Assembly (NCBI GenBank): GCA_964426965.1
Contig: CAYRSI010000002.1
Coordinates: forward strand, 1 to 35,655
Source of the DNA: an uncultured Candidatus Saccharibacteria bacterium
GTDB taxonomy: Bacteria; Patescibacteriota; Minisyncoccia; RBG-13-40-8-A; JAUWHN01
Reading direction: 5' to 3'
Length of the DNA: 35,655 bases
The position numbers were made by a program, and so were the translations under genes. Position 1 is the stretch's first letter, and each line of letters begins with the position of its first letter. Shown in pieces: positions 5,242-35,655 of this stretch. The notes under the pieces are model-generated. The model worked only from the letters and a program-made list of their open reading frames with translations. It was not told where the DNA came from and did no database searches.

Positions 5242-5934
5242 TCACTTCCATCCTTTCTTTTTTATTGCTGCTTTAGCAGCTTTTTCCTGGGCTACTTGCT
5301 TGCTAGGGCCTTCTCCTTTGGCTATCATCTTCTCTCCCAAAAAAACTCCAACTATAAACTGCTTGGCATGGTCGGGTCCGCTCTCTCCTAAAACTTCGTA
5401 ACTTGGGGTAACTCCTGCTTTATCCTGGGCCTTTTCCTGAAAACGACTCTTAGGATCATGATACAATTTTCTCTCTAAAATTACTGGCAACTCTTTAATC
5501 AAATGCTTAATGATAAATTCATTGGCTTTTTCAAATCCTTGATCTAAATAAATAGCCCCTATCACTGCCTCAAAAGTATTGGCTAAAATAAATTGGCGAG
5601 CCCTGCCAGTATCATGAGACTCGCCCTTAGAAAGCAAAAGATGGTCATTAAACTTTAAACGATTAGCTGTATTAGCCAACATTTTACTATTAACCAGAGC
5701 AGCCCTCCAAATCGTCAACTCGCCTTCTGGGTTGGGATAATTCCCATACAAATGTTTGGTTACCACCAACTCTAAAACTGCATCCCCTAAAAACTCCATA
5801 CGTTCATTGTCATCAAGTTTGTACTTAGGATGCTCATTAAGATAAGACCTATGAACAAAAGCCTGCTGGAGCAAGTCTTTGTTCTTAAACGTGATACCTA
5901 AACTTTTTTCTAGTTTATTAAGATTTTTTGTCAT
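5242..5934 (-). CDS. rnc: Ribonuclease III
   Basis: Contains the [15 protein letters not shown] signature plus a C-terminal dsRBD (...GPDHAKQF...[17 protein letters not shown]). I prefer the start at [10 protein letters not shown] (5934). The track ORF extends to 6003 across the GC palindrome. Confidence 0.9.
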
Positions 5935-6433
5935 TTGATTTCCTGCCTGCCGGCAGGCAGGTGTTTTTGGGCCTTTCATCTTCTTTTGACTTTCCTGTCT
6001 CATCTTTCCCCGGCTCTCCTATCTCCCGATAGATTGTTCCCAATACCCCATTAATAAACTTTCCAGAAGACTCACCGCCATAAGTTTTAGCTAACTCAAT
6101 TGCTTCATTAATGGCTACTTTTGGCGGCACTTCTTTACGGTCACCAAAGAGAAGTTCATAAAGTCCAATTCGTAAAACATTCCTGTCAACAATAGTAATT
6201 TGCTCTAATGGCCATTCTGGCGCTGCCTTTTCAATAATCTTATCAATTTTAGGCTGAAACTTCATTACGCTCTTAGCTAAACTATGAATAAAATCAACAT
6301 CCTCAGCATCCGGAGTTAATGCCTCGATGTTTCTTCCAATGACTTTCTTAAGCTCATCTGATTTCCTCTTTCTAAAATCCCATTCATAAAGGGATTGTAA
6401 TACAATTGAACGAGCTAAATGACGAGATGCCAT
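5918..6433 (-). CDS. nusB: Transcription antitermination factor NusB with a C-terminal tail that reads through a GC palindrome
   Basis: [20 protein letters not shown]...[15 protein letters not shown]...[26 protein letters not shown]. It overlaps the rnc start by 17 nt. Confidence 0.88.
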
Positions 6434-6764: not shown

Positions 6765-6789
6765 GTCCGACCCGGATCGGGTCTAGGAC
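6765..6789 (-). other. GC-rich hairpin in the rpmF leader (GTCC-GACCCG-GAT-CGGGTC-TA-GGAC)
   Basis: Inverted repeat read directly, 15 nt upstream of the rpmF ATG. A related hairpin lies at 7896-7920. Confidence 0.6.
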
Positions 6790-6819
6790 AATTAACAATT
6801 AACAATTAACAATTAACAA
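6788..6819. repeat. 7-bp microsatellite, (ACAATTA) x4 plus a partial unit
   Basis: Direct reading: acaattaacaattaacaattaacaattaacaaa. Confidence 0.9.
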
Positions 6820-7015: not shown

Positions 7016-7043
7016 TTGACAAGTTGTTTTAAAAGAGTATAAT
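7016..7043 (+). promoter_or_regulatory. Near-consensus promoter for secE-nusG
   Basis: TTGACA (7016-7021), 16-nt spacer, TATAAT (7038-7043), 37 nt upstream of the secE ATG. Confidence 0.65.
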
Positions 7044-7080
7044 AAAAATAGATTAGCCCTTAGGGGCTTTTTAAAAAACC

Positions 7081-7275: not shown

Positions 7276-7821
7276 ATGACTAAACCAGAATTAGAATCTA
7301 AAAGAGAATGGTACGTACTTCATACCTACTCTGGGTATGAAGATGCAGTAGCCCATAATCTTAAGCAACGCATCGAATCTCTTGACATGGAAGACAGGAT
7401 TTTTAATGTTTTGGTTCCGAAAGAGAAAAAAATTAAGATAAAAGGAGGTAAAAGGCAAGTTGTAGAAGAAAAAATTTATCCTGGCTATGTGCTGGTGGAA
7501 ATGGTTGTTACTGATGATTCCTGGTATGTGGTCAGGAATACTCCTCGAGTAACTGGATTTATTGGCGCAGGAACCATTCCTGTACCAATCTCCGCTGAAG
7601 AGATTAAAAAAATACAAAAAAGAATGGGGGTTGAAGAACCAACTTACAAAATTGATGTTGAAGTTGACGATGCAGTAAAAATTATTGACGGTCCCTTTAG
7701 GGATTTTGACGGAAAAATAAACGAAGTAGATCAAGCAAAAGGAAAAATTAAAGTGCTGGTAAATATGTTTGGCAGAGAAACACCAGTCGAGCTAGACTTC
7801 TTGCAAGTCAAGAAGATATAG
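7276..7821 (+). CDS. nusG: Transcription termination/antitermination factor NusG
   Basis: WYVLHTYSGYEDAV..., YPGYVLVEM, and a C-terminal KOW (VKIIDGPFRDFDGKINEVD). Confidence 0.95.
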   Translation: MTKPELESKREWYVLHTYSGYEDAVAHNLKQRIESLDMEDRIFNVLVPKEKKIKIKGGKRQVVEEKIYPGYVLVEMVVTDDSWYVVRNTPRVTGFIGAGTIPVPISAEEIKKIQKRMGVEEPTYKIDVEVDDAVKIIDGPFRDFDGKINEVDQAKGKIKVLVNMFGRETPVELDFLQVKKI

Positions 7822-7996
7822 CTCAAATCACAAATAACAAGCACCAAATAACAAACAAATTCTAAGCACTAAATTCTAAATTCCAAACCCTACAGGTCCG
7901 AGACCTCGGGTCTATAGGACAGTTTTATATTTTGGTCATTGGAATTTGGAAATTGTTTGAGATGTTTGTGATTTGTAATTTGGGATTTAAACATTT
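7822..7996. repeat. Strand-skewed long imperfect inverted-repeat element, copy A: CA-rich arm, GC hairpin 7896-7920, GT-rich arm
   Basis: The left arm has only about 2 G and the right arm about 2 C. It shares gcaccaaataacaaacaaat (7841-7860) and attgtttgagatgtttgtgatttgt (7952-7976) exactly with 26835-26854 and 26924-26948. Confidence 0.85.
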
Positions 7997-8419
7997 ATGG
8001 CAAAGCCAATTAAAACAATTATAAAATTGCAAATAAAAGCCGGTCAGGCCAACCCGGCGCCGCCGATTGGGCCGGCCTTGGGTCAGCATGGGTTGGATAT
8101 CCAACAATTCTGCGCTCAATTTAATGAAGCTACTAAAGATAAGGGTAGCGATATTATTCCTGTAGAAATTACAGTTTATGAAGACAGAACTTTTGATTTC
8201 CAATTAAAAACTCCGCCAGCTTCTGATTTACTTAAAAAAGCAGCTGGGATTGAAAAGGGTTCTGGCATACCCCACAAAGAAAAAGTGGGCAAAGTAACTA
8301 GGAAACAAATCCGCGAAATCGCTGAAAAGAAACTGGTGGATTTAAATGCCAATGACATAAAAGCAGCAATGAAAATTATAGAAGGCACTGCGAGAAATAT
8401 GGGGATCAAGATAGTGTAA
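7997..8419 (+). CDS. rplK: 50S ribosomal protein L11
   Basis: [32 protein letters not shown].... Confidence 0.96.
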
Positions 8420-8431
8420 TAAATTAGCTAT

Positions 8432-9229
8432 ATGAACAAGAAGTTAAAAAATAAAGGAAAATTTACCCCTCACCTTTCGCAAGAAAAGAAGGATATCTCG
8501 CGGAAAAAACGGTTTATTGCAATGAATGGCAAGCGACTTTTTCGAAGAAAAAAAGGTGCGGGGTTTATTGTTATTGAGGGAACTGATGGATCTGGGAAGA
8601 CAGAACAGTTTAAAAAATTAATTGCGAGGTTAAAGTCTAATGGTTTTAAAGTTGCTACTTTTGATTTCCCACAATACGAAAAACCAAGTTCCTATTTTGT
8701 AAAAGAATATTTAAATGGCAAGTATGGTAGTTGGAAAAAAGTTGGCCCTCACAAGGCCTCTATTTTTTATGCTTTGGATAGATTTGGAGCGGGTAAAGAA
8801 ATAAAAAAAGAACTAAAAACAGGAAAAATAGTTATCTCAAACAGATACGTTGCTTCAAATATGGGCCATCAAGGCTCAAAAATTAAAAGCAAAAAACAAA
8901 GGATAAAACTTTACAAATGGTTATATGAGCTTGAATTTGAAATTTTAGGAATCCCCCGCCCTATGCTAAATATTGTTCTACATGTACCAGCTAAAACTGC
9001 CCAGAAGCTCGTTGACAAAAAAGGTAAGAGAGAATATCTAAAAGGCGCAAGACGAGATATTCATGAAGACGATATTGGGCATTTAAAACAAGCTGAGCAG
9101 GCTTACTTAGAAATTGTTAAACTCTTTCCAGGGGATTTCCGTTTAGTTGAATGCGTTGAAAATAAACGACTTTTGTCAATTGAGGAAATCCATGAAAAAG
9201 TTTGGAAAGTTGTAAAACAAGCTTTATAA
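8432..9229 (+). CDS. tmk: Thymidylate kinase. The true start may be the internal ATG at 8522.
   Basis: FIVIEGTDGSGKTEQ P-loop and a family-typical layout. Residues 1-30 are a low-complexity basic extension. Confidence 0.85.
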   Translation: MNKKLKNKGKFTPHLSQEKKDISRKKRFIAMNGKRLFRRKKGAGFIVIEGTDGSGKTEQFKKLIARLKSNGFKVATFDFPQYEKPSSYFVKEYLNGKYGSWKKVGPHKASIFYALDRFGAGKEIKKELKTGKIVISNRYVASNMGHQGSKIKSKKQRIKLYKWLYELEFEILGIPRPMLNIVLHVPAKTAQKLVDKKGKREYLKGARRDIHEDDIGHLKQAEQAYLEIVKLFPGDFRLVECVENKRLLSIEEIHEKVWKVVKQAL

Positions 9230-9254
9230 TAAACCGCGAAATAATAAATCCTCA

Positions 9255-9319
9255 CAAAACTACAGAACAAAACTACAGAACAAAACTACAGAACAAAACT
9301 ACAGAACAAAACTACAGAA
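9255..9319. repeat. Perfect tandem repeat, 5 x 13 bp (CAAAACTACAGAA)
   Basis: Direct reading. There are no spacers, so it is not CRISPR-like. Confidence 0.95.
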
Positions 9320-9336
9320 ACCATCTAAATGATTAA

Positions 9337-9368
9337 TCAGCATTTTAGACGATCGTCTAAAATGCTGA
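9337..9368. repeat. Perfect 32-bp palindrome TCAGCATTTTAGACGA|TCGTCTAAAATGCTGA
   Basis: Direct reading. A degenerate copy lies at 10048-10079. Confidence 0.95.
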
Positions 9369-9433: not shown

Positions 9434-9997
9434 ATGCCAATTAAACTCCCCTTTACTGAAAAATTTCTTTGGGATTTATATAAGTTTGTAAATAAAACTG
9501 AAGGTGTATTGAGCTTCTTTATAGCAGATAGGCCTTATGGGTTTAGAGGATTAGAAGAAATGACTTGGCCTGAAATTAAAGTCTTTAAAAGCAATTGGGA
9601 ATTCGAGTACAAGAAAAAGAAAAAAGATTTTGCTAAGCTTGTATATAGTCTTAAACAAAACGGTTATATTAAAACTCTCCGAATAAAAGATAAATCGGCT
9701 ATTATGTTAACTTCTAAAGGATTAAATAAGGTTTTTACAATTAAAATAAAATTAGTAGATAAGAAAATAAGACCAGATAAAAAATGGCAGATGGTTCTTT
9801 TTGATATTCCGGAAAAGAAAAGAAGGCAAAGAAATTTGTTTAGAAAAAATCTTCAATATTTAGGCTACAAAAAACTTCAAAGAAGTATCTGGGTTTGCCC
9901 ATATGATGTGTTAAATGAAACAAAAGATTTAATTAAAAGATATAGGCTTGAGCCGCATGTGGAATTATTATTAGTTAAAAAAATCGGCTTGGGTTAA
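9434..9997 (+). CDS. Putative DNA-binding regulator, PaaX-like (wHTH plus Cas2-like ferredoxin-fold module)
   Basis: WQMVLFDIPEKKRRQRNLFRKNLQYLGYKKLQRSIWVCPYD matches the PaaX/Cas2-fold beta-alpha-beta-beta pattern as I remember it. Upstream, LVYSLKQNGYIKT...LTSKGL looks like a wHTH. Confidence 0.45.
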   Translation: MPIKLPFTEKFLWDLYKFVNKTEGVLSFFIADRPYGFRGLEEMTWPEIKVFKSNWEFEYKKKKKDFAKLVYSLKQNGYIKTLRIKDKSAIMLTSKGLNKVFTIKIKLVDKKIRPDKKWQMVLFDIPEKKRRQRNLFRKNLQYLGYKKLQRSIWVCPYDVLNETKDLIKRYRLEPHVELLLVKKIGLG

Positions 9998-10047: not shown

Positions 10048-10079
10048 TCAGCATTTATGACGATCGTTAAAAAAGCTGA
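10048..10079. repeat. Degenerate second copy of the 32-bp palindrome (TCAGCATTTATGACGATCGTTAAAAAAGCTGA)
   Basis: Same length and the same ends and centre (TCAGCATTT...GACGATCGT...GCTGA) as 9337-9368. Confidence 0.8.
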
Positions 10080-11899: not shown

Positions 11900-13861
11900 T
11901 TTCTCGGCTTCTCGGTAATTACTTACCCAATGAATTCTTTTGTCACGCTTAAACCAAGTCATTTGGCGTTTTGCATAATGTTCAATTTCTTTTTGAAGTT
12001 TTTCAACCATTTCTTGTTTGGTTATTTTTCCTTGAAGATACTTAGCAATATAACGATACTCTAATCCAAAATCATCCAACCTTTTCCACGACAAGCCTCC
12101 GCCAGCTGGCGGATTTTTTAACTTTTTAACTTCAGCAATCATGCCTTTCTTAAGACGATGTAGCAATCGTTTTTTTATTAAGACTTTTAACTTTTGATTC
12201 GATTTTTTTATACCGACTATTAAAACATCCCGGCCTACGGCCTGCCTGCCGGCAGGACAGGATGGTCCGCCCGCTTCGCCGCGAGGCGAGCCGTAGACGG
12301 AAAATTGAAGAGGGGGCACTGGTTTGCCAGATTTAATAACTATCTCCAAGGCCCGGATTAAACGCCGCCTATTTTTGGAATCAATATTTTTAGCTCGACG
12401 GGGGTCGAGTTTTTTTAATTTTTTAAACAAAGCTTCGGTGGTTTCTTTTTCTAAATTTTTTCTTAGCCTTAAATCAGGTTTTACTCTTGGAATAATTAAT
12501 CCTTCAACAACTGCCTGAATATAAAATCCGGTTCCACCACAAAGAATTGGAACTTTTCCTTTTTTGTAAATTCTATTAATTGTCTGAAGTGCTTTTCTTT
12601 GATATTGAGCAACTGTAAATCTCCTCTTTGGATTAGCTGCATCTAAAAGATAATGCGGAATCCCCTGCATCTCTTTTTTAGTAATTTTGCCGGTCCCAAT
12701 ATCCATACCCTTATAAACCTGTCTCGAATCAGCAGAAATAATTTCTCCGTTAAACTTTTTAGCAAGCTTAACAGCTAAATCAGATTTTCCTGAAGCAGTT
12801 GGTCCCAAGACTACTATTAATTTCTCTTTCTTTTTAAGAATATCGTCTAATATCTTCCAACGGCGCTTCTTTTCATTCCATGATATACTATCTTTAAATT
12901 TAACAGCAGCTGTTCCCGACCTCGGAGAGTATTTATTAATATATGCTATATCATAATTAACTTGTTTAAATATCTTTACTGTGTTTTGAAATTGCTTTTT
13001 TGTTTCTCCTGGAAAACCAACAATAACGTCTGTAGATAACTTAACATTAGGAATCTTTTTTCTGATTTTATTAACCAAACTTAAATATTGTTTAACCGTA
13101 TATTTTCTGTTCATTTTCTTTAAAATCTCATCGTCCCCGCTTTGAATAGGCAAATGTATTTCCTTGACGACTTTTTCGCATTTGGCAATTGTATCAATTA
13201 ATTCATTAGACATATCCTTTGGGTGATTAGTTAAAAAATGAATTTTAAAATTGCCAGGAAGTTTATTAATTTTATTAAGCAAGTCAACAAAACCATATTC
13301 GCCCGCCTTACCGCAAGACAGGTAAGAATTAACATTTTGTCCTATTAGGGTTATTTTTTTATAACCATTTTTAATTAAGTTTTTTATTTCATCTATTATT
13401 TCTTGGACTGGCCTTGAAACTTCCCTTCCCCGAGTATAAGGAACTACGCAATAAGTACAAAAATTATCACAGCCAGTCATTATAGGAACAAAAGCTGAAA
13501 ATTTATTAATACATTTAGGTTTCAAAGATAGGTAATTTTTTCCCAGAAATTTTTCAATATCCAATACTTCGTCAAAAAACTTTCTGAACTTTATTCTATC
13601 AGACTTTAAAATACAGCCAGTTAATATTTTTTTAGCTTTCAGGCGAGCAAATTTTTGTTTCAGCCCGAAAATCCTATCTATTGCAGTTTGCCGAACCGAA
13701 CAAGCATTAACAACAATCAAATCAGCCTTCGCTAAAGCTTTGGCGGACGAGTCAGCCCCTTTTACGGGCTTATATCCTTTATTTTCCAAAACAGCTGCAA
13801 TCCGCTCACTATCAGAATAATTCATCTGACAACCAAAAGTTTTTATAAAATATGTTTTCAT
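11858..13861 (-). CDS. Fusion protein: radical-SAM methylthiotransferase MiaB (no TRAM domain) plus tRNA dimethylallyltransferase MiaA
   Basis: N-terminal half: MKTYFIKTFGCQMNYSDSE and CDNFCTYCVVPYTRGRE. C-terminal half: LIVVLGPTASGKSDLA...ISADSRQVYKGMDIGTGK...QRKALQ. It is one uninterrupted frame. Start chosen at 13861 (the track ORF begins at 13933, inside a terminator hairpin). Confidence 0.88.
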   Translation of the reverse strand: MKTYFIKTFGCQMNYSDSERIAAVLENKGYKPVKGADSSAKALAKADLIVVNACSVRQTAIDRIFGLKQKFARLKAKKILTGCILKSDRIKFRKFFDEVLDIEKFLGKNYLSLKPKCINKFSAFVPIMTGCDNFCTYCVVPYTRGREVSRPVQEIIDEIKNLIKNGYKKITLIGQNVNSYLSCGKAGEYGFVDLLNKINKLPGNFKIHFLTNHPKDMSNELIDTIAKCEKVVKEIHLPIQSGDDEILKKMNRKYTVKQYLSLVNKIRKKIPNVKLSTDVIVGFPGETKKQFQNTVKIFKQVNYDIAYINKYSPRSGTAAVKFKDSISWNEKKRRWKILDDILKKKEKLIVVLGPTASGKSDLAVKLAKKFNGEIISADSRQVYKGMDIGTGKITKKEMQGIPHYLLDAANPKRRFTVAQYQRKALQTINRIYKKGKVPILCGGTGFYIQAVVEGLIIPRVKPDLRLRKNLEKETTEALFKKLKKLDPRRAKNIDSKNRRRLIRALEIVIKSGKPVPPLQFSVYGSPRGEAGGPSCPAGRQAVGRDVLIVGIKKSNQKLKVLIKKRLLHRLKKGMIAEVKKLKNPPAGGGLSWKRLDDFGLEYRYIAKYLQGKITKQEMVEKLQKEIEHYAKRQMTWFKRDKRIHWVSNYREAEKLVFEFFSFLFKFI
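12231..12300. repeat. GC-rich composite palindromic element inside the miaA half
   Basis: CTACGGC-CTGCCTGCCGGCAGG...CGCCCGCTTCGCCGCGAGGCGAGCC-GTAG. It shares modules with 5942-5961 and 24178-24218. Confidence 0.85.
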
Positions 13862-15239: not shown

Positions 15240-15241
15240 AA

Positions 15242-15295
15242 TGTTAATTACTAAATGTTAATTGTTAAATGTTAATTGTTAATTGTTGTTGTTCG
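15242..15295. repeat. Degenerate GTTAATT/TGTTAAT microsatellite spanning the thrS stop
   Basis: tgttaattactaaatgttaattgttaaatgttaattgttaattgttgttgtt. It is the reverse complement of the repeat type at 6788-6819. Confidence 0.8.
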
Positions 15296-17047
15296 ACCTT
15301 TTATCTCCTTATTTATTATAACAATAAATTTATCTATTGTCATCATTCCGATATCCCCCCTCTTTCTGTCCCGAGCCCTGACTGAATTTAATTTCTGTTC
15401 CTTGTCACCGACGACCAACATATAAGGAATCCTTTGAATTTCTCCTTCGCGAATTTTCTTGGAAACAGTTTCGTTTTCATCTTTATTTTCTACTCTTAAT
15501 CCTTCGCTTTCTAGTTTTTTTGCCACTTCCTTAGCGTATTTATTGTGGCGACTACCTACTGGAACAACCCAAATCTGAACTGGCGCAAGCCAAGCAGGTA
15601 AGGCGCCAGCATAATGCTCTAAAAGAATGCCAATAAACCTTTCGATGCTTCCCAAAACAGTCCGATGGATCATTATTGGTTGTTGTTTTTTCCCCTTTTC
15701 ATCGATATAGGTCATCTTGAATCTTTCTGGAAGATTAAAATCGAGCTGAATAGTCCCACACTGCCACGATCGACCAATCGCATCTTTAACATGAAAATCT
15801 ATTTTGGGACCATAAAAAGTACCATCGCCAGGATTAAGCTGATATTTAATTTTTTTAACTTCTAAAGCTTTTTTAAGGGCAGCTGTGGCTTTACGCCAAA
15901 TTTCATCAGAACCGATTGACTTTTTTGGTCTAGTTGAAAGTTCCACGTGGTAATCTTTGAATCCGAAGATTTTATACACATGGAAGACTAAATCAACTAC
16001 TTTACAGAGCTCATCTAGCATCTGTTGCTTAGTGCAAATGATGTGAGCATCGTCTTGAGTAAAACCACGAGGCCGCATTAATCCGTGAAGTACTCCTGAT
16101 TTTTCGGCCCGATACACTGTGCCCAATTCTGCATATTTTAAGGGGAGATCCCTGTAACTTCTAATTTTAGATTTATAAACAAGAACATGGCCATTACAAT
16201 TCATTGGTTTAATGCCATATTCTCGATCTTCAATTTTGGTAAACATCATACTTTCTTTATACCAACCATGATGGCCAGAAATTTTCCACAGCTCACTGCT
16301 ATAAATGTGGGGTGTAACTAAAAAAGCATAACCTCTCTTTGTGTGTTCTTTTGTCCAAAAATCTTCAATGATTTTCCTTAAAATAACTCCTTTTGGCTGC
16401 CAAAGAACAAGGCCTGCCCCGGCTTCAGGGGGCATAATAAAAATTTCTAATTTCTGACCAATTATTCGATGGTCTCTTTTTTCTGCTTGTTCTTGTTTTT
16501 TAATATAATCACCAAGCTCTTTTTTTGTATTAAAGGCCACTCCATAAATTCGCTGAAGCATTGGATTTTTTTCATCGCCACGCCAATAAGCTCCGGCTAT
16601 TTTAGTTAATTTGAAAGCACCTGGGTTTATTTCCTTAGTAGATCTGACGTGAGGACCAGCACATAAATCTACAAAATCCCCGGATTTATAAATAGTAGCA
16701 TTCTTGATCTTTAATTCTTTAATGAGTTCTAATTTATATGGCTGATTTTTGAATAACTTCTTGGCCCCGACCTTAGAAACAATCTTTTTTTCAAATTTTA
16801 TATTTTGTTTAATCAATTCTCTCATTCGTTTCTCAATACGTGGTAAGTCCTCGGGCTTAAAGGCAAATCTCTCCTTCGCTGACGCTGCGGAGGGCAAGGC
16901 AAAATCATAATAAAATCCGTTTTCTATCGTCGGCCCAATACCAAATTTGACATCTTTAAAGATGTCCATCACCGCATGCGCCATTATATGAGATAAAGAA
17001 TGCCGGATTGTATCAATTTTCATGGTTTTTAAATTCTTTTGCTTCAT
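15272..17047 (-). CDS. thrS: Threonyl-tRNA synthetase lacking the N-terminal TGS domain
   Basis: IRHSLSHIMAHAV...GPTIENGFYYDF...AYWRGDEKNPMLQRIYG...KPMNCNGH...RGFTQDDAHI. An alternative start lies at 17023. Confidence 0.95.
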   Translation of the reverse strand: MKQKNLKTMKIDTIRHSLSHIMAHAVMDIFKDVKFGIGPTIENGFYYDFALPSAASAKERFAFKPEDLPRIEKRMRELIKQNIKFEKKIVSKVGAKKLFKNQPYKLELIKELKIKNATIYKSGDFVDLCAGPHVRSTKEINPGAFKLTKIAGAYWRGDEKNPMLQRIYGVAFNTKKELGDYIKKQEQAEKRDHRIIGQKLEIFIMPPEAGAGLVLWQPKGVILRKIIEDFWTKEHTKRGYAFLVTPHIYSSELWKISGHHGWYKESMMFTKIEDREYGIKPMNCNGHVLVYKSKIRSYRDLPLKYAELGTVYRAEKSGVLHGLMRPRGFTQDDAHIICTKQQMLDELCKVVDLVFHVYKIFGFKDYHVELSTRPKKSIGSDEIWRKATAALKKALEVKKIKYQLNPGDGTFYGPKIDFHVKDAIGRSWQCGTIQLDFNLPERFKMTYIDEKGKKQQPIMIHRTVLGSIERFIGILLEHYAGALPAWLAPVQIWVVPVGSRHNKYAKEVAKKLESEGLRVENKDENETVSKKIREGEIQRIPYMLVVGDKEQKLNSVRARDRKRGDIGMMTIDKFIVIINKEIKGRTTTINN

Positions 17048-20292: not shown

Positions 20293-24448
<4,156 letters not shown>

Positions 24449-24458
24449 TTCTTCCTCG

Positions 24459-24522
24459 CGAATTACGAATTTCATCGAATTACGAATATTCGTAATTCGT
24501 GTTTGATTCGTAATTCGTAGGA
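24459..24522. repeat. Cluster of four 12-mers (2x cgaattacgaat, 2x attcgtaattcg), including a perfect 24-bp palindrome, in the pheS-pheT spacer
   Basis: 12-mers at 24459-24470, 24476-24487, 24488-24499 and 24506-24517. Positions 24476-24499 are a perfect palindrome. Confidence 0.9.
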
Positions 24523-24525
24523 TAT

Positions 24526-26812: not shown

Positions 26813-26961
26813 AAGTTAAAATCACAAGCACCAAGCACCAAATAACAAACAAATACCAAGCACCAAATTCTAATGACTAAAACGGAAAATTACTGTTTGG
26901 AATTTAGGATTTTGAATTTGGATATTGTTTGAGATGTTTGTGATTTGTTATTTGAGATTTA
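26813..26961. repeat. Strand-skewed long imperfect inverted-repeat element, copy B. Its right end contains the gatA stop codon and last four codons.
   Basis: Shares the same two exact blocks as copy A, in the same order and orientation. The left arm is G-poor and the right arm C-poor. Confidence 0.85.
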
Positions 26962-34923: not shown

Positions 34924-35032
34924 AGATTTATTTATTTTTAACTTTTTTCATACTTTTATTATAACAAAAAACCGCCCACTTGTCCCGATTTAATAGAGGG
35001 AAAAGGCGATTTTCTGGCATTTAATCTTTTAG

Positions 35033-35236
35033 TTAACCCATATTTTTTCTTTCTTCCAACGAAAACGATGTAAGCCATAAAATGAATGGCCTTCTAAGCT
35101 TATCAATGGACCACTCATTATCTTTAAACAACGATGCCTTTTCTGTCTTAAAACGAGAAAGCATTTCCATTGTAGTCTGCAAATCTAAAGAAGACAACCT
35201 ATTGTGTTCCAATAAAAATTGTTGTTTTTTGCTCAT
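35033..35236 (-). CDS. Hypothetical protein (67 aa)
   Basis: ORF only. A possible promoter TTGATT, 17 nt, TAAGAT ends 6 nt before the ATG. Confidence 0.35.
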   Translation of the reverse strand: MSKKQQFLLEHNRLSSLDLQTTMEMLSRFKTEKASLFKDNEWSIDKLRRPFILWLTSFSLEERKNMG

Positions 35237-35271
35237 CTTTCCATCTTACCAGTTTAGGAAAATAAAATCAA

Positions 35272-35348
35272 GCCCGGCAGTGAAACTTCGACATAATTTC
35301 ATTTTTCGGTCCCGCGTTGCGGGATCAGTCGAGGTTCTACTGCCGGGC
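35272..35348. other. 77-nt nested hairpin of unknown function
   Basis: GCCCGGCAG/CTGCCGGGC outer stem, CTTCGAC/GTCGAGG middle stem and TCCCGC-gtt-GCGGGA inner hairpin. The minus-strand version is followed by UUGAUUUUAUUUU. Confidence 0.5.
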
Positions 35349-35357
35349 AAGTAAACA

Positions 35358-35380
35358 AATGCCCCATAATATGGGGCATT
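35358..35380 (-). terminator. Terminator-like hairpin
   Basis: AATGCCCCAT-aat-ATGGGGCATT, followed on the minus strand by TTGTTTACTT. Confidence 0.5.
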
Positions 35381-35502
35381 AATGAGGCATTTATTTTTGG
35401 GGAATAGACTTGACACAGTTTTTCTTTTAAGGGTTTTTCCGGGCTCTCTCCGACGCGCCTGCCCGTCCAAAGCTGAAAGCGAAGGAGGGTCTCGGTCGGG
35501 TC

Positions 35503-35530
35503 AAAATGAGACACTCGAGTGTCTCATTTT
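35503..35530. terminator. Perfect 28-bp palindrome; probable bidirectional terminator
   Basis: AAAATGAGACACTC|GAGTGTCTCATTTT. Confidence 0.55.
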
Positions 35531-35655
35531 CCCGATTTTAAAGCTAAATGAGACAAATGAGACAGTGGTTTAAACTAATTTTAGTCTCCTCAACGCCACG
35601 CATAAAGCCTGGGGATCGTTAGTTGTTAAAACATAAGCTCTTTTTTTACCTTCGA

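Follow-up and report, generated by a model that had tools for sequence, protein, structure and literature searches.

A palindrome of degenerate heptamer arrays fills the nusG-rplK spacer of a Patescibacteria genome

The oldest example of a bacterial heptanucleotide repeat is the STRR of cyanobacteria (Calothrix, Nostoc), one form of which, STRR2, has TTGGTCA as its unit. On record since 1990, such repeats still lack an explanation for their origin and function (PMC4692102, PMC4679880). They are over-represented in bacteria, where they are mostly intergenic, lie between co-directional genes, are at times inverted and change rapidly from one close relative to the next (PMC4692102), and in part they stand directly upstream of start codons (PMC4679880). 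Described units include GGGAATC in Xanthomonas and GGGGA(T/C)T in Nostoc (PMC4692102), as well as TAACTGA in Beggiatoaceae, Cyanobacteria and Bacteroidetes (PMC4679880). Here we examine 35,655 nt of contig CAYRSI010000002.1 (hereafter the window; G+C 35.6%) from a genome of the Patescibacteria, or candidate phyla radiation (CPR), in which the entire spacer between nusG and rplK is taken up by a 175-nt element, copy A. This element belongs to the heptanucleotide repeat arrays and is one of at least three family copies in the ~49 kb of this genome that were examined, which is the scope of all genome-wide statements on arrays and copies below. What is new is the heptamer architecture of both its arms, and the joining of an array with its complement into a composite palindrome copied to other loci. 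We give about even chances to the reading that the spacer holds a non-coding palindrome in which two arrays, each of about ten degenerate 7-nt units, mirror one another, and that this palindrome grew by slippage and template switching and is tolerated as an insertion.

The likeness to STRR-like heptanucleotide repeats extends to the 7-nt unit, the intergenic position between co-directional genes with the array often ending before a start codon, the mixture of unit variants within an array, the occasional inverted pairs, the occasional presence in open reading frames (ORFs), and the fast turnover of length and sequence between close relatives. The differences are that the units of copy A and of a second copy, B, are degenerate (70-82% unit match by Tandem Repeats Finder, TRF), while another array in the window (6788-6819) is perfect; that array and complement together make a composite palindrome of 150-175 nt; that this palindrome fills a stop-to-start spacer and is copied as a unit to other loci; and that the host is a Patescibacteria genome. 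An earlier, sequence-only reading of this DNA could assign the element to no known repeat family. That holds for Rfam (no match even at E up to 10), REP/BIME, Correia and miniature inverted-repeat transposable elements (MITEs) with terminal inverted repeats and target-site duplications, but the element does fit heptanucleotide repeat arrays. Literature searches turned up neither a report of such elements from Patescibacteria or Anaerolineae nor one of GCACCAA repeats.

Small palindromic intergenic repeats that are co-transcribed with operons include Correia in Neisseria, ERIC/IRU in enterobacteria, and RUP and BOX in pneumococci; Correia and ERIC transcripts are processed or alter the stability of the flanking mRNA. 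With these families the element shares a length of 100-200 nt, dispersal, long hairpin potential and a place inside operons, but it has neither discrete terminal repeats nor a TA or other target duplication, is AT-rich and heptamer-periodic, was seen in few copies and has no sequence similarity to them. Rickettsia palindromic elements (RPE) form longer conserved families without 7-nt periodicity, likewise in a reduced genome. They too are found both between genes and, in frame, within ORFs or at their ends, as is the case here for the GatA tail, the RpoC tail of one relative (L178) and the PheT linker, yet their sequences are not similar to the element. REP/BIME and REPIN are GC-rich palindromes of 20-40 nt tied to RAYT transposases (PMC3116915). 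They resemble the element as short dispersed extragenic palindromes without target duplication, whereas the element is 33% G+C, 150-175 nt long and heptamer-phased; no RAYT-like gene was present in the loci examined (~49 kb).

Copy A runs from the nusG stop codon to the rplK start (7997), leaving no part of the gap unoccupied, and comprises the following parts.

7819-7821, plus strand: nusG stop codon TAG, adjoining the 5' base of the predicted stem (fold; ORF 7276-7821, Pfam NusG)
7822-7888, plus strand: left arm of copy A, G-poor, about 9-10 degenerate CAANNNN heptamers (composition, autocorrelation, TRF)
7889-7918, plus strand: apex of copy A, a GC-rich stem-loop of 12 pairs, then ACAG and a U-rich run (fold)
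7919-7984, plus strand: right arm of copy A, C-poor, about 9 degenerate heptamers complementary to the left arm
7985-7999, plus strand: unpaired 12-nt linker ATTTAAACATTT and the rplK start codon (fold; ORF 7997-8419, Pfam Ribosomal_L11)

The left arm can be read as the units CAAATCA, CAAATAA, CAAGCAC, CAAATAA, CAAACAA, ATTCTAA, GCACTAA, ATTCTAA and ATTCCAA, and the right arm as TTGGTCA, TTGGAAT, TTGGAAA, TTGTTTG, AGATGTT, TGTGATT, TGTAATT and TGGGATT. The strand skew already noticed from the sequence is confirmed, with 2 G in 73 nt on the left (7822-7894) and 2 C in 76 nt on the right (7921-7996), and it arises because CAANNNN units with A, C or T at the variable positions hold no G. Equally sound was the observation that the arms are approximate reverse complements: they match at 71-100% by segment, for example at 78% between 7817-7843 and 7963-7989 and at 100% between 7824-7834 and 7965-7975. 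Both arms have a 7-nt periodicity, with autocorrelations of 0.52-0.62 at lags 7, 14 and 21 against 0.36 in shuffles (0.62 at lag 7 in the left arm of copy A), and the three peaks are significant in all four arms of copies A and B (P <= 0.0135 against shuffles). TRF called period-7 arrays in both arms of each copy (7824-7855, 7857-7887, 7965-7988, 26825-26841 and 26937-26960), with a perfect unit match only for CAAGCAC, repeated 2.4 times. The literal unit TTGGTCA/TGACCAA occurs in copy A (7932-7938) and in relatives.

Further support for a family comes from copy B (26813-26961, 149 nt), which is collinear with copy A and in the same plus-strand orientation, with its flanking genes on the other strand.

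26813-26883, no strand assigned: left arm of copy B, units AAATCAC, AAGCACC, AAGCACC, AAATAAC, AAACAAA, TACCAAG, CACCAAA and TTCTAAT
26884-26895, no strand assigned: apex of copy B, without a GC hairpin
26896-26961, no strand assigned: right arm of copy B, which on the minus strand holds the last four gatA codons and the stop codon (26950-26948)

The reverse complement of the left arm forms the 5' leader of a minus-strand gene for a protein of 181 aa (ATG at 26812-26810). Left arms of A and B agree at 87% over 60 nt and right arms at 83% over 66 nt, and nhmmer supports the homology at E 1e-15 to 7e-17, bearing out the earlier proposal of a second copy in the same order. That proposal had cited exact shared blocks of 20 and 25 nt; the 25-nt block stands (7952-7976 = 26924-26948), and the other measures 23 nt (7838-7860 = 26832-26854). 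Since the longest block shared by arm-wise shuffles was at most 16 nt, similarity through chance and low complexity does not account for these blocks.

A search for copies beyond these two had been proposed, and one was found, along with the sister-species orthologue described below. Extension of the source contig through an RpoC cluster member (locus L184; loci are cited by L numbers throughout) reached a diverged copy C of 137 nt, ~12 kb beyond the window (L184 19903-20039), which fills the spacer between a glutaredoxin gene and a thioredoxin-reductase-like gene. It consists of a G-poor arm followed by a C-poor arm, has partial similarity to copy A (nhmmer E 0.017), and ends, like copy A, in ...GACATTT ATG. 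The ~49 kb thus hold two copies at ~85% similarity and one diverged copy, together with a further palindrome of 7/8-mers (L184 22876-22968). Significant 7-nt periodicity was found in 7-8 of the 22 spacers of at least 43 nt, among them the following arrays of other units.

6788-6819, no strand assigned: heptamer array ACAATTA x4.6, perfect, without a partner, upstream of rpmF (TRF)
15240-15297, no strand assigned: heptamer array TGTTAAT x6.6, without a partner, from the end of thrS to the next start codon (TRF)
24459-24525, no strand assigned: CGAATTA heptamer palindrome filling the pheS-pheT spacer (TRF)

Patescibacteria genomes are among the most streamlined, yet about a third of the longer spacers examined here are heptamer arrays. 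Copies A and B carried no internal variant across three assemblies of the source population; the window is matched at 99.95-100% identity by JGI contigs Ga0309839_1000307 (72 kb) and Ga0111033_1036440 (34 kb).

Comparison with relatives indicates how the nusG-rplK spacer came to be filled. The best relatives by NusG, RpoC and GatA were metagenome-assembled genomes (MAGs) labelled Portnoybacteria, Falkowbacteria, Patescibacteria group or 'Saccharibacteria'. In many of the 36 Patescibacteria nusG-rplK loci compared, just 0-15 nt separate the two genes. The loci with the most similar NusG are of this kind, with spacers of 2 nt (L001), 4 nt (L002), 5 nt (L011) and 1 nt (L008); L018 and others also have 1-5 nt. 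Some relatives hold GC hairpins in this spacer (L003, L025, L036), and unrelated periodic, skewed repeats in a similar style occur in nusG-rplK loci L029, L013, L014, L020-L026 and L027. Element A is a lineage-specific gain and not an ancestral leader, the spacer being 1-5 nt in most relatives. The sequence-only reading had called for a search for target-site duplications and empty sites; empty sites were found for both A and B, and filled-versus-empty comparison gave no duplication at site A.

Two closer relatives found via RpoC represent a sister species, both at ~86% DNA identity to the window: L177 shares its sample with the source, whereas L178 stems from a different one. They have an orthologue of 112 nt in this spacer against 175 nt in the window. 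It has the same sequence near the apex (AGTTTT..TTGTCATT) and the same end (..AAACATT ATG) as copy A. The left-arm units AAATTCT/AAGCACT/AAATTCT/AAATTCC of copy A correspond to AAATCCG/AAGCACG/AAATCCG/AAATCCG in the orthologue, and in the right arm TTGG stands against TTTG three times and TTTG against TTTC(G) three times, so that the differences are identical substitutions recurring in phase. The unit changes are thus concerted within the arrays and matched across the arms.

Site B was filled more recently. GatA-based loci were uninformative (<=62% identity), and relatives were found via the 181-aa neighbour, whose homologues at 86%, 83% and 76% identity all lie 5-6 nt from gatA (L186-L193). 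At this site ~14 nt (ATATCATAAAAATT) are exchanged in the window for the 149-nt element, without a target-site duplication in the comparison of filled and empty sites, and the GatA tail reads ...EQLNLK* against ...EQIS* in relatives, its stop codon being supplied by copy B. These comparisons show copy B to be the newer copy, put into a 5-6-nt spacer without target duplication and altering the end of gatA. Some of the arrays have been inserted between essential, formerly translationally coupled genes (nusG-rplK; gatA with the adjoining gene), and some changed the C-termini of the encoded proteins. The nusG-rplK locus offers a natural series of empty site, 112-nt orthologue and 175-nt element with nested hairpin, with a second site filled very recently; this series shows concerted evolution of units and arms.

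Heptamer arrays were also seen at the ends of, and within, other ORFs. The last 14 codons of rpoC in L177 and L178 (CAAGCACCAAGCACCAAAAAACAAACAAATCC...; protein ...KSQAPSTKKQTNPKSK*) nearly duplicate the left arm of copy B (L178 12219-12270, L177 13427-13494) and are followed by a normal GC terminator with no right arm; the rpoC tails of L179 (94% RpoC identity) and of the window genome differ from these. A linker in PheT after ...AALLNSK (24219-24243, minus strand) is encoded by AAATTCC units with a GC-rich insert, and the same place in relative L188 (7822-7915) is encoded by CAAGTTA x4 (...LQVTSYKLQES...). The PheT linker array resembles in-frame RPE-like insertions.

We assessed folding against dinucleotide shuffles (n=200 for the plus strand of copy A) and against shuffles preserving the composition of each arm. 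The plus strand of copy A folds at -51.8 kcal/mol (z -5.05, with none of 200 dinucleotide shuffles as good; z -5.0 with arm composition kept) into a long hairpin directly upstream of rplK, as had been expected. Its pairs are 36 A-U, 18 G-C and 6 G-U, so the description of it as A-U/G-U-rich is right for A-U and overstated for G-U. The central GC hairpin is likewise real but lies at 7889-7918 and not at 7896-7920; on its own it folds no better than shuffles (z -0.7). It is missing from copies B and C and, like the case of copy B, by alignment from the L177/L178 orthologue, and its 31-nt sequence occurs once in the window and has no exact match in the genome contig collection. It is a later addition nested in the element. 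Against shuffled controls, a comparison that the earlier reading had asked for, copy A stands out clearly and the others less so: copy B gives z -2.8 on the plus strand (z -2.7 against arm-composition shuffles) and about -0.9 on the minus strand, copy C -3.2 and -3.75 on its two strands, and the L177 orthologue, a single long hairpin, a modest -1.8. The sense strand is the better folder in A and L177 and the worse in B and C; this inconsistent advantage fits complementarity kept at the DNA level. Energies of left-arm by right-arm duplexes formed a weakly diagonal matrix that was not diagnostic.

One feature marks the transcriptional setting.

7016-7043, plus strand: consensus sigma-70-type promoter TTGACA-16-TATAAT upstream of secE, 12/12 matches

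It is the sole good plus-strand promoter match before rplK, and the scan called no plus-strand promoter-like or terminator-like site within 7822-7996, while detecting canonical GC-stem and T-run terminators elsewhere in the window. With the promoter at secE and none of these signals called inside the element, rplK most likely needs read-through. Between this promoter and the secE start (7016-7080) there is also a GC hairpin with a T run (7055-7075), which could be a leader, an attenuator or a terminator for divergent transcription. Downstream, rplK is followed by tmk (thymidylate kinase) and not by rplA, rplJ or rplL (7997-9229), with rpoB-rpoC upstream on the other strand, a layout also found in L177/L178. 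The lack of rplA, noted before, is thus borne out, and we take it to fit a Parcubacteria subgroup reported to lack L1, as seen here at the level of the locus.

On the reading we favour, arrays would grow and homogenise through replication slippage in 7-nt steps, intra-strand (quasipalindrome) template switching, and not selection acting on one of the RNA strands, would keep the arms complementary, and whole composites would occasionally be copied to new short spacers by a duplication-free mechanism. Quasipalindrome template-switch mutagenesis, known from E. coli genetics, copies a change in one arm to the other. It would yield the parallel arm changes seen between copy A and the L177 orthologue, although it is a mutational process and not an element family, and its action here is one that we infer. 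The element would be transcribed within a secE-nusG-rplK-tmk mRNA and fold into a long, mainly A-U hairpin, a plausible substrate for RNase III (rnc lies at 5242-5979 in the window). In the predicted folds of A (plus strand) and B (minus strand) the 5' base of the stem is 0-1 nt away from the stop codon, and 6-12 nt separate its 3' base from the start codon. Across the hairpin base, only a few nucleotides would then lie between the upstream stop codon and the region of the downstream start, and this closeness would account for the tolerance of such insertions between genes once coupled in translation. Most likely, then, the element is a selfish or neutral insertion that the host tolerates and whose effect on downstream expression is modest at most; this analysis gave no evidence of a sequence-specific regulatory role.

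Several points weigh against this reading. Parallel changes in the two arms could equally reflect selection for pairing. The sense (minus) strand of copy B folds no better than shuffles (z -0.9 to -1.0), and a role for the hairpin is therefore not supported for every copy. Just three family copies were seen in the ~49 kb. Co-transcription, folding and RNase III cleavage are all events that we infer. Lastly, the units GCACCAA, ATTCCAA and TGACCAA are met again across many phyla, with several copies in certain genomes, a pattern that random slippage alone does not predict.

The first of these points leads to an alternative that we regard as possible though unlikely, namely that the element is a selected RNA device, either a processing site for RNase III or 3' protection, or a module that couples or insulates translation in a polycistronic mRNA. 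Such a device would agree with the significant folds of A and C, with the single long hairpin of the L177 orthologue, in which both arms are altered together, with the constant geometry of stop codon, stem and start codon, and with the presence of rnc in the window. Precedent comes from a heptamer-repeat-associated 5'-UTR (untranslated region) hairpin of Haemophilus that is cleaved by RNase III (PMC12721329). Against it, the spacer lacks the element in most relatives, so it is not needed for these essential genes, and the sense strand is not consistently the better folder (copy B sense z ~-1). Alignment of five elements with MAFFT and RNAalifold recovered 20 apex-proximal pairs but no net covariation support. 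Heptamer arrays align in several registers, leaving the alignment register ambiguous.

The recurrence of units across phyla bears on a broader proposal. Using a strict definition of a heptamer array (lag-7 autocorrelation of at least 0.70 over 49 nt), we found 7 arrays in Patescibacteria nusG loci (202 kb), 7 in Anaerolineales gatA loci (562 kb) and 0 in 718 kb of other bacteria (258 kb of nusG loci and 460 kb of gatA loci). The Anaerolineales arrays are inverted pairs directly upstream of gatA. Heptamer palindromes of these Chloroflexota (L125 9871-10025, L137 6023-6152 and 7570-7670, L133 3940-4126, L131 311-373) are of similar build with the arm order opposite to that of copy A, for example GAGATTA/GGTAATT ... 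CCAATTA/CTCTAAT. Elsewhere, a scan of 185,579 species genomes found the two-unit pattern CAAGCACCAAGCACCAAA at no fewer than 118 loci. Among the matches listed, several genomes were hit on 3-4 contigs, including a Kaiserbacteria MAG, an Omnitrophota MAG, Aminicenantes and Hymenobacter montanus, with a Roseivirga MAG and a Bacteroidales MAG as further multi-contig genomes. Flanks outside the search pattern share, among these matches, the phased consensus ...CAAAT.C [CAAGCAC CAAGCAC] CAAATTC CAAACAA..CCAAA..CCAAAT, and a complementary arm lies within 220 nt in 68/130, compared with 30/128 in a reversed control. The cross-phylum claim rests on clustering by genome and on shared flanks, and not on the size of the enrichment. 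The layout of stop codon, CAA-type arm, apex, TTG-type arm and ATG recurs in Patescibacteria L206, L253 and L271, and the right arm of L271 ends in ...TTTGTAATTTGGAATTTGTGATTTGGGATTTAG, close to the end of that of copy A. Candidates from a looser detector (a G-poor arm, a C-poor arm and at least 28 cross pairs) were mainly false positives in coding DNA and serve as leads only.

In a Hymenobacter MAG (Bacteroidota) of 61-62% G+C, a GC-rich palindrome is enclosed by large inverted pairs of the form (TTGGTGC)n ... (GCACCAA)n (L263 1752-1960, L256 7501-7565), which extend up to a start codon; GCACCAA-type units are thus not bound to AT-rich genomes.

The recurrence of units hints, from sequence comparison, that the repeats are spread actively or bound by a conserved factor. 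A full version of this proposal would be a cross-phylum, actively propagating class of (CAANNNN)n palindromes with a shared vocabulary, made or spread by templating or recognised by a conserved factor, acting as coupling or translation modules independent of Shine-Dalgarno motifs in lineages where such motifs are little used; we consider it doubtful. Such a class may span Patescibacteria, Omnitrophota, Bacteroidota, Acidobacteriota, Aminicenantes, Cyanobacteria and others. Unit recurrence in distant phyla makes the choices testable: slippage against an active mechanism, and junk against translation modules.

Related to this, and in our judgement rather improbable, is the idea that the arrays bind protein, with one protein or domain per single-stranded unit (cold-shock-type OB folds, S1), as Shine-Dalgarno-independent enhancers or regulators of translation. 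Arrays do stop 6-12 nt short of start codons, few genes in the window are preceded by a Shine-Dalgarno motif, arrays without a partner stand directly before start codons (6788-6819, 15240-15297; L020-L026, L181, L182), and the same unit types occur across phyla. Such a role has been hypothesised for TAACTGA repeats, with heptamer binding by CspB as precedent (PMC4679880). However, the many unit sequences within one genome (CAAATAA, ACAATTA, CGAATTA, AGCTTTT, ATTTCTA) argue against a single sequence-specific binder. Orientation to the downstream gene is not fixed either: CAA-type arrays among the CPR matches had no clear bias on crude ORF calls (7 sense, 4 antisense), and A and B are opposite. 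Moreover, the inverted form would pair the very array that adjoins the start codon.

Three further readings, a classical MITE, a plain terminator and an L11 leader, were each contradicted by direct test. That the element is a MITE, a non-autonomous transposon with terminal inverted repeats served by a transposase encoded elsewhere, is improbable. It would account for two to three related copies at unrelated loci, for clean empty sites in relatives and for the inversion of copy B relative to local transcription. No target-site duplication accompanies A or B, however, and ~14 nt of target were replaced at B; the inverted repeat spans the whole element and is not confined to its ends; MITEs are not characterised by turnover of units or by a 7-nt period in their interior; and there is no transposase in ~49 kb. 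Cores of 19-23 nt also lacked matches beyond chance: the 23-nt right-arm core had no exact match in the genome contig collection, the 11 matches to a 19-nt core in metagenome contigs were all in unrelated contexts, and neither arm core had a match in viral contigs.

Very improbable is a terminator or attenuator after nusG, made of the apex GC stem and its U-rich run or of the whole hairpin. The 12-pair stem is followed by ACAG UUUUAUAUUUU, with the U-rich run 4 nt after the stem, and GC hairpins do occur in this spacer in L003, L025 and L036. Yet the scan that calls canonical terminators elsewhere did not call one here, the apex stem is no better than shuffles, copies B and C and the L177 orthologue do without it, and, with no promoter between the apex and rplK, complete termination would shut off an essential gene. 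Hardly credible is an L11-operon leader or ribosomal-protein autoregulatory RNA, at which the sequence-only reading had hinted: its position directly upstream of rplK alone speaks for it, whereas no Rfam model matches, most relatives lack it, their empty sites in effect already refuting this reading, the same element stands at gatA and at a glutaredoxin gene, and its sequence is not conserved even in the sister species.

We also rejected a CRISPR-like array, a riboswitch and a promoter inside the element. TIGR arrays of CPR and phages are regular repeat-spacer arrays beside a Tas (Nop-domain) gene (PMC12045711); the element has no repeat-spacer organisation and its neighbours are nusG, rplK and gatA, and this candidate was rejected as well.

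The window holds other repeats besides. A perfect 20-nt GC palindrome, CCTGCCTGCCGGCAGGCAGG, lies inside the nusB/rnc overlap (5942-5961), where it is read as ...CLPAGR... and ...PACRQAG..., and a copy with 3 mismatches lies in a miaB-miaA fusion ORF (12241-12260). Exact copies occur in unrelated CPR genomes (L023 3310-3329, L029 5406-5425, L271 6238-6257), that of L271 forming the apex of a heptamer palindrome, and the RpoC tail of the window genome (...GACLPARQA) looks like CCTGCCTGCCGGCAGGCAGG translated. This palindrome represents a second family of dispersed repeats with copies landing inside ORFs.

At the end of the window, ~730 nt without a long ORF (34924-35655) have long-range pairing (CCCGGCAGTGAAACTTCGAC ... 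GTCGAGGTTCTACTGCCGGG), and their best Rfam match, at E 0.014 to a yeast snoRNA model, is not credible; this region could be an uncatalogued RNA or a degraded gene. Closer to rplK, there is a perfect 13-nt tandem repeat, ACAAAACTACAGA x5.1 (9254-9319), and two 30-nt palindromes (CAGCATTTTAGACGATCGTCTAAAATGCTG and a variant; 9338-9367 and 10049-10078) flank the gene for a PaaX-like regulator (9434-9997), for which they may be operator sites.

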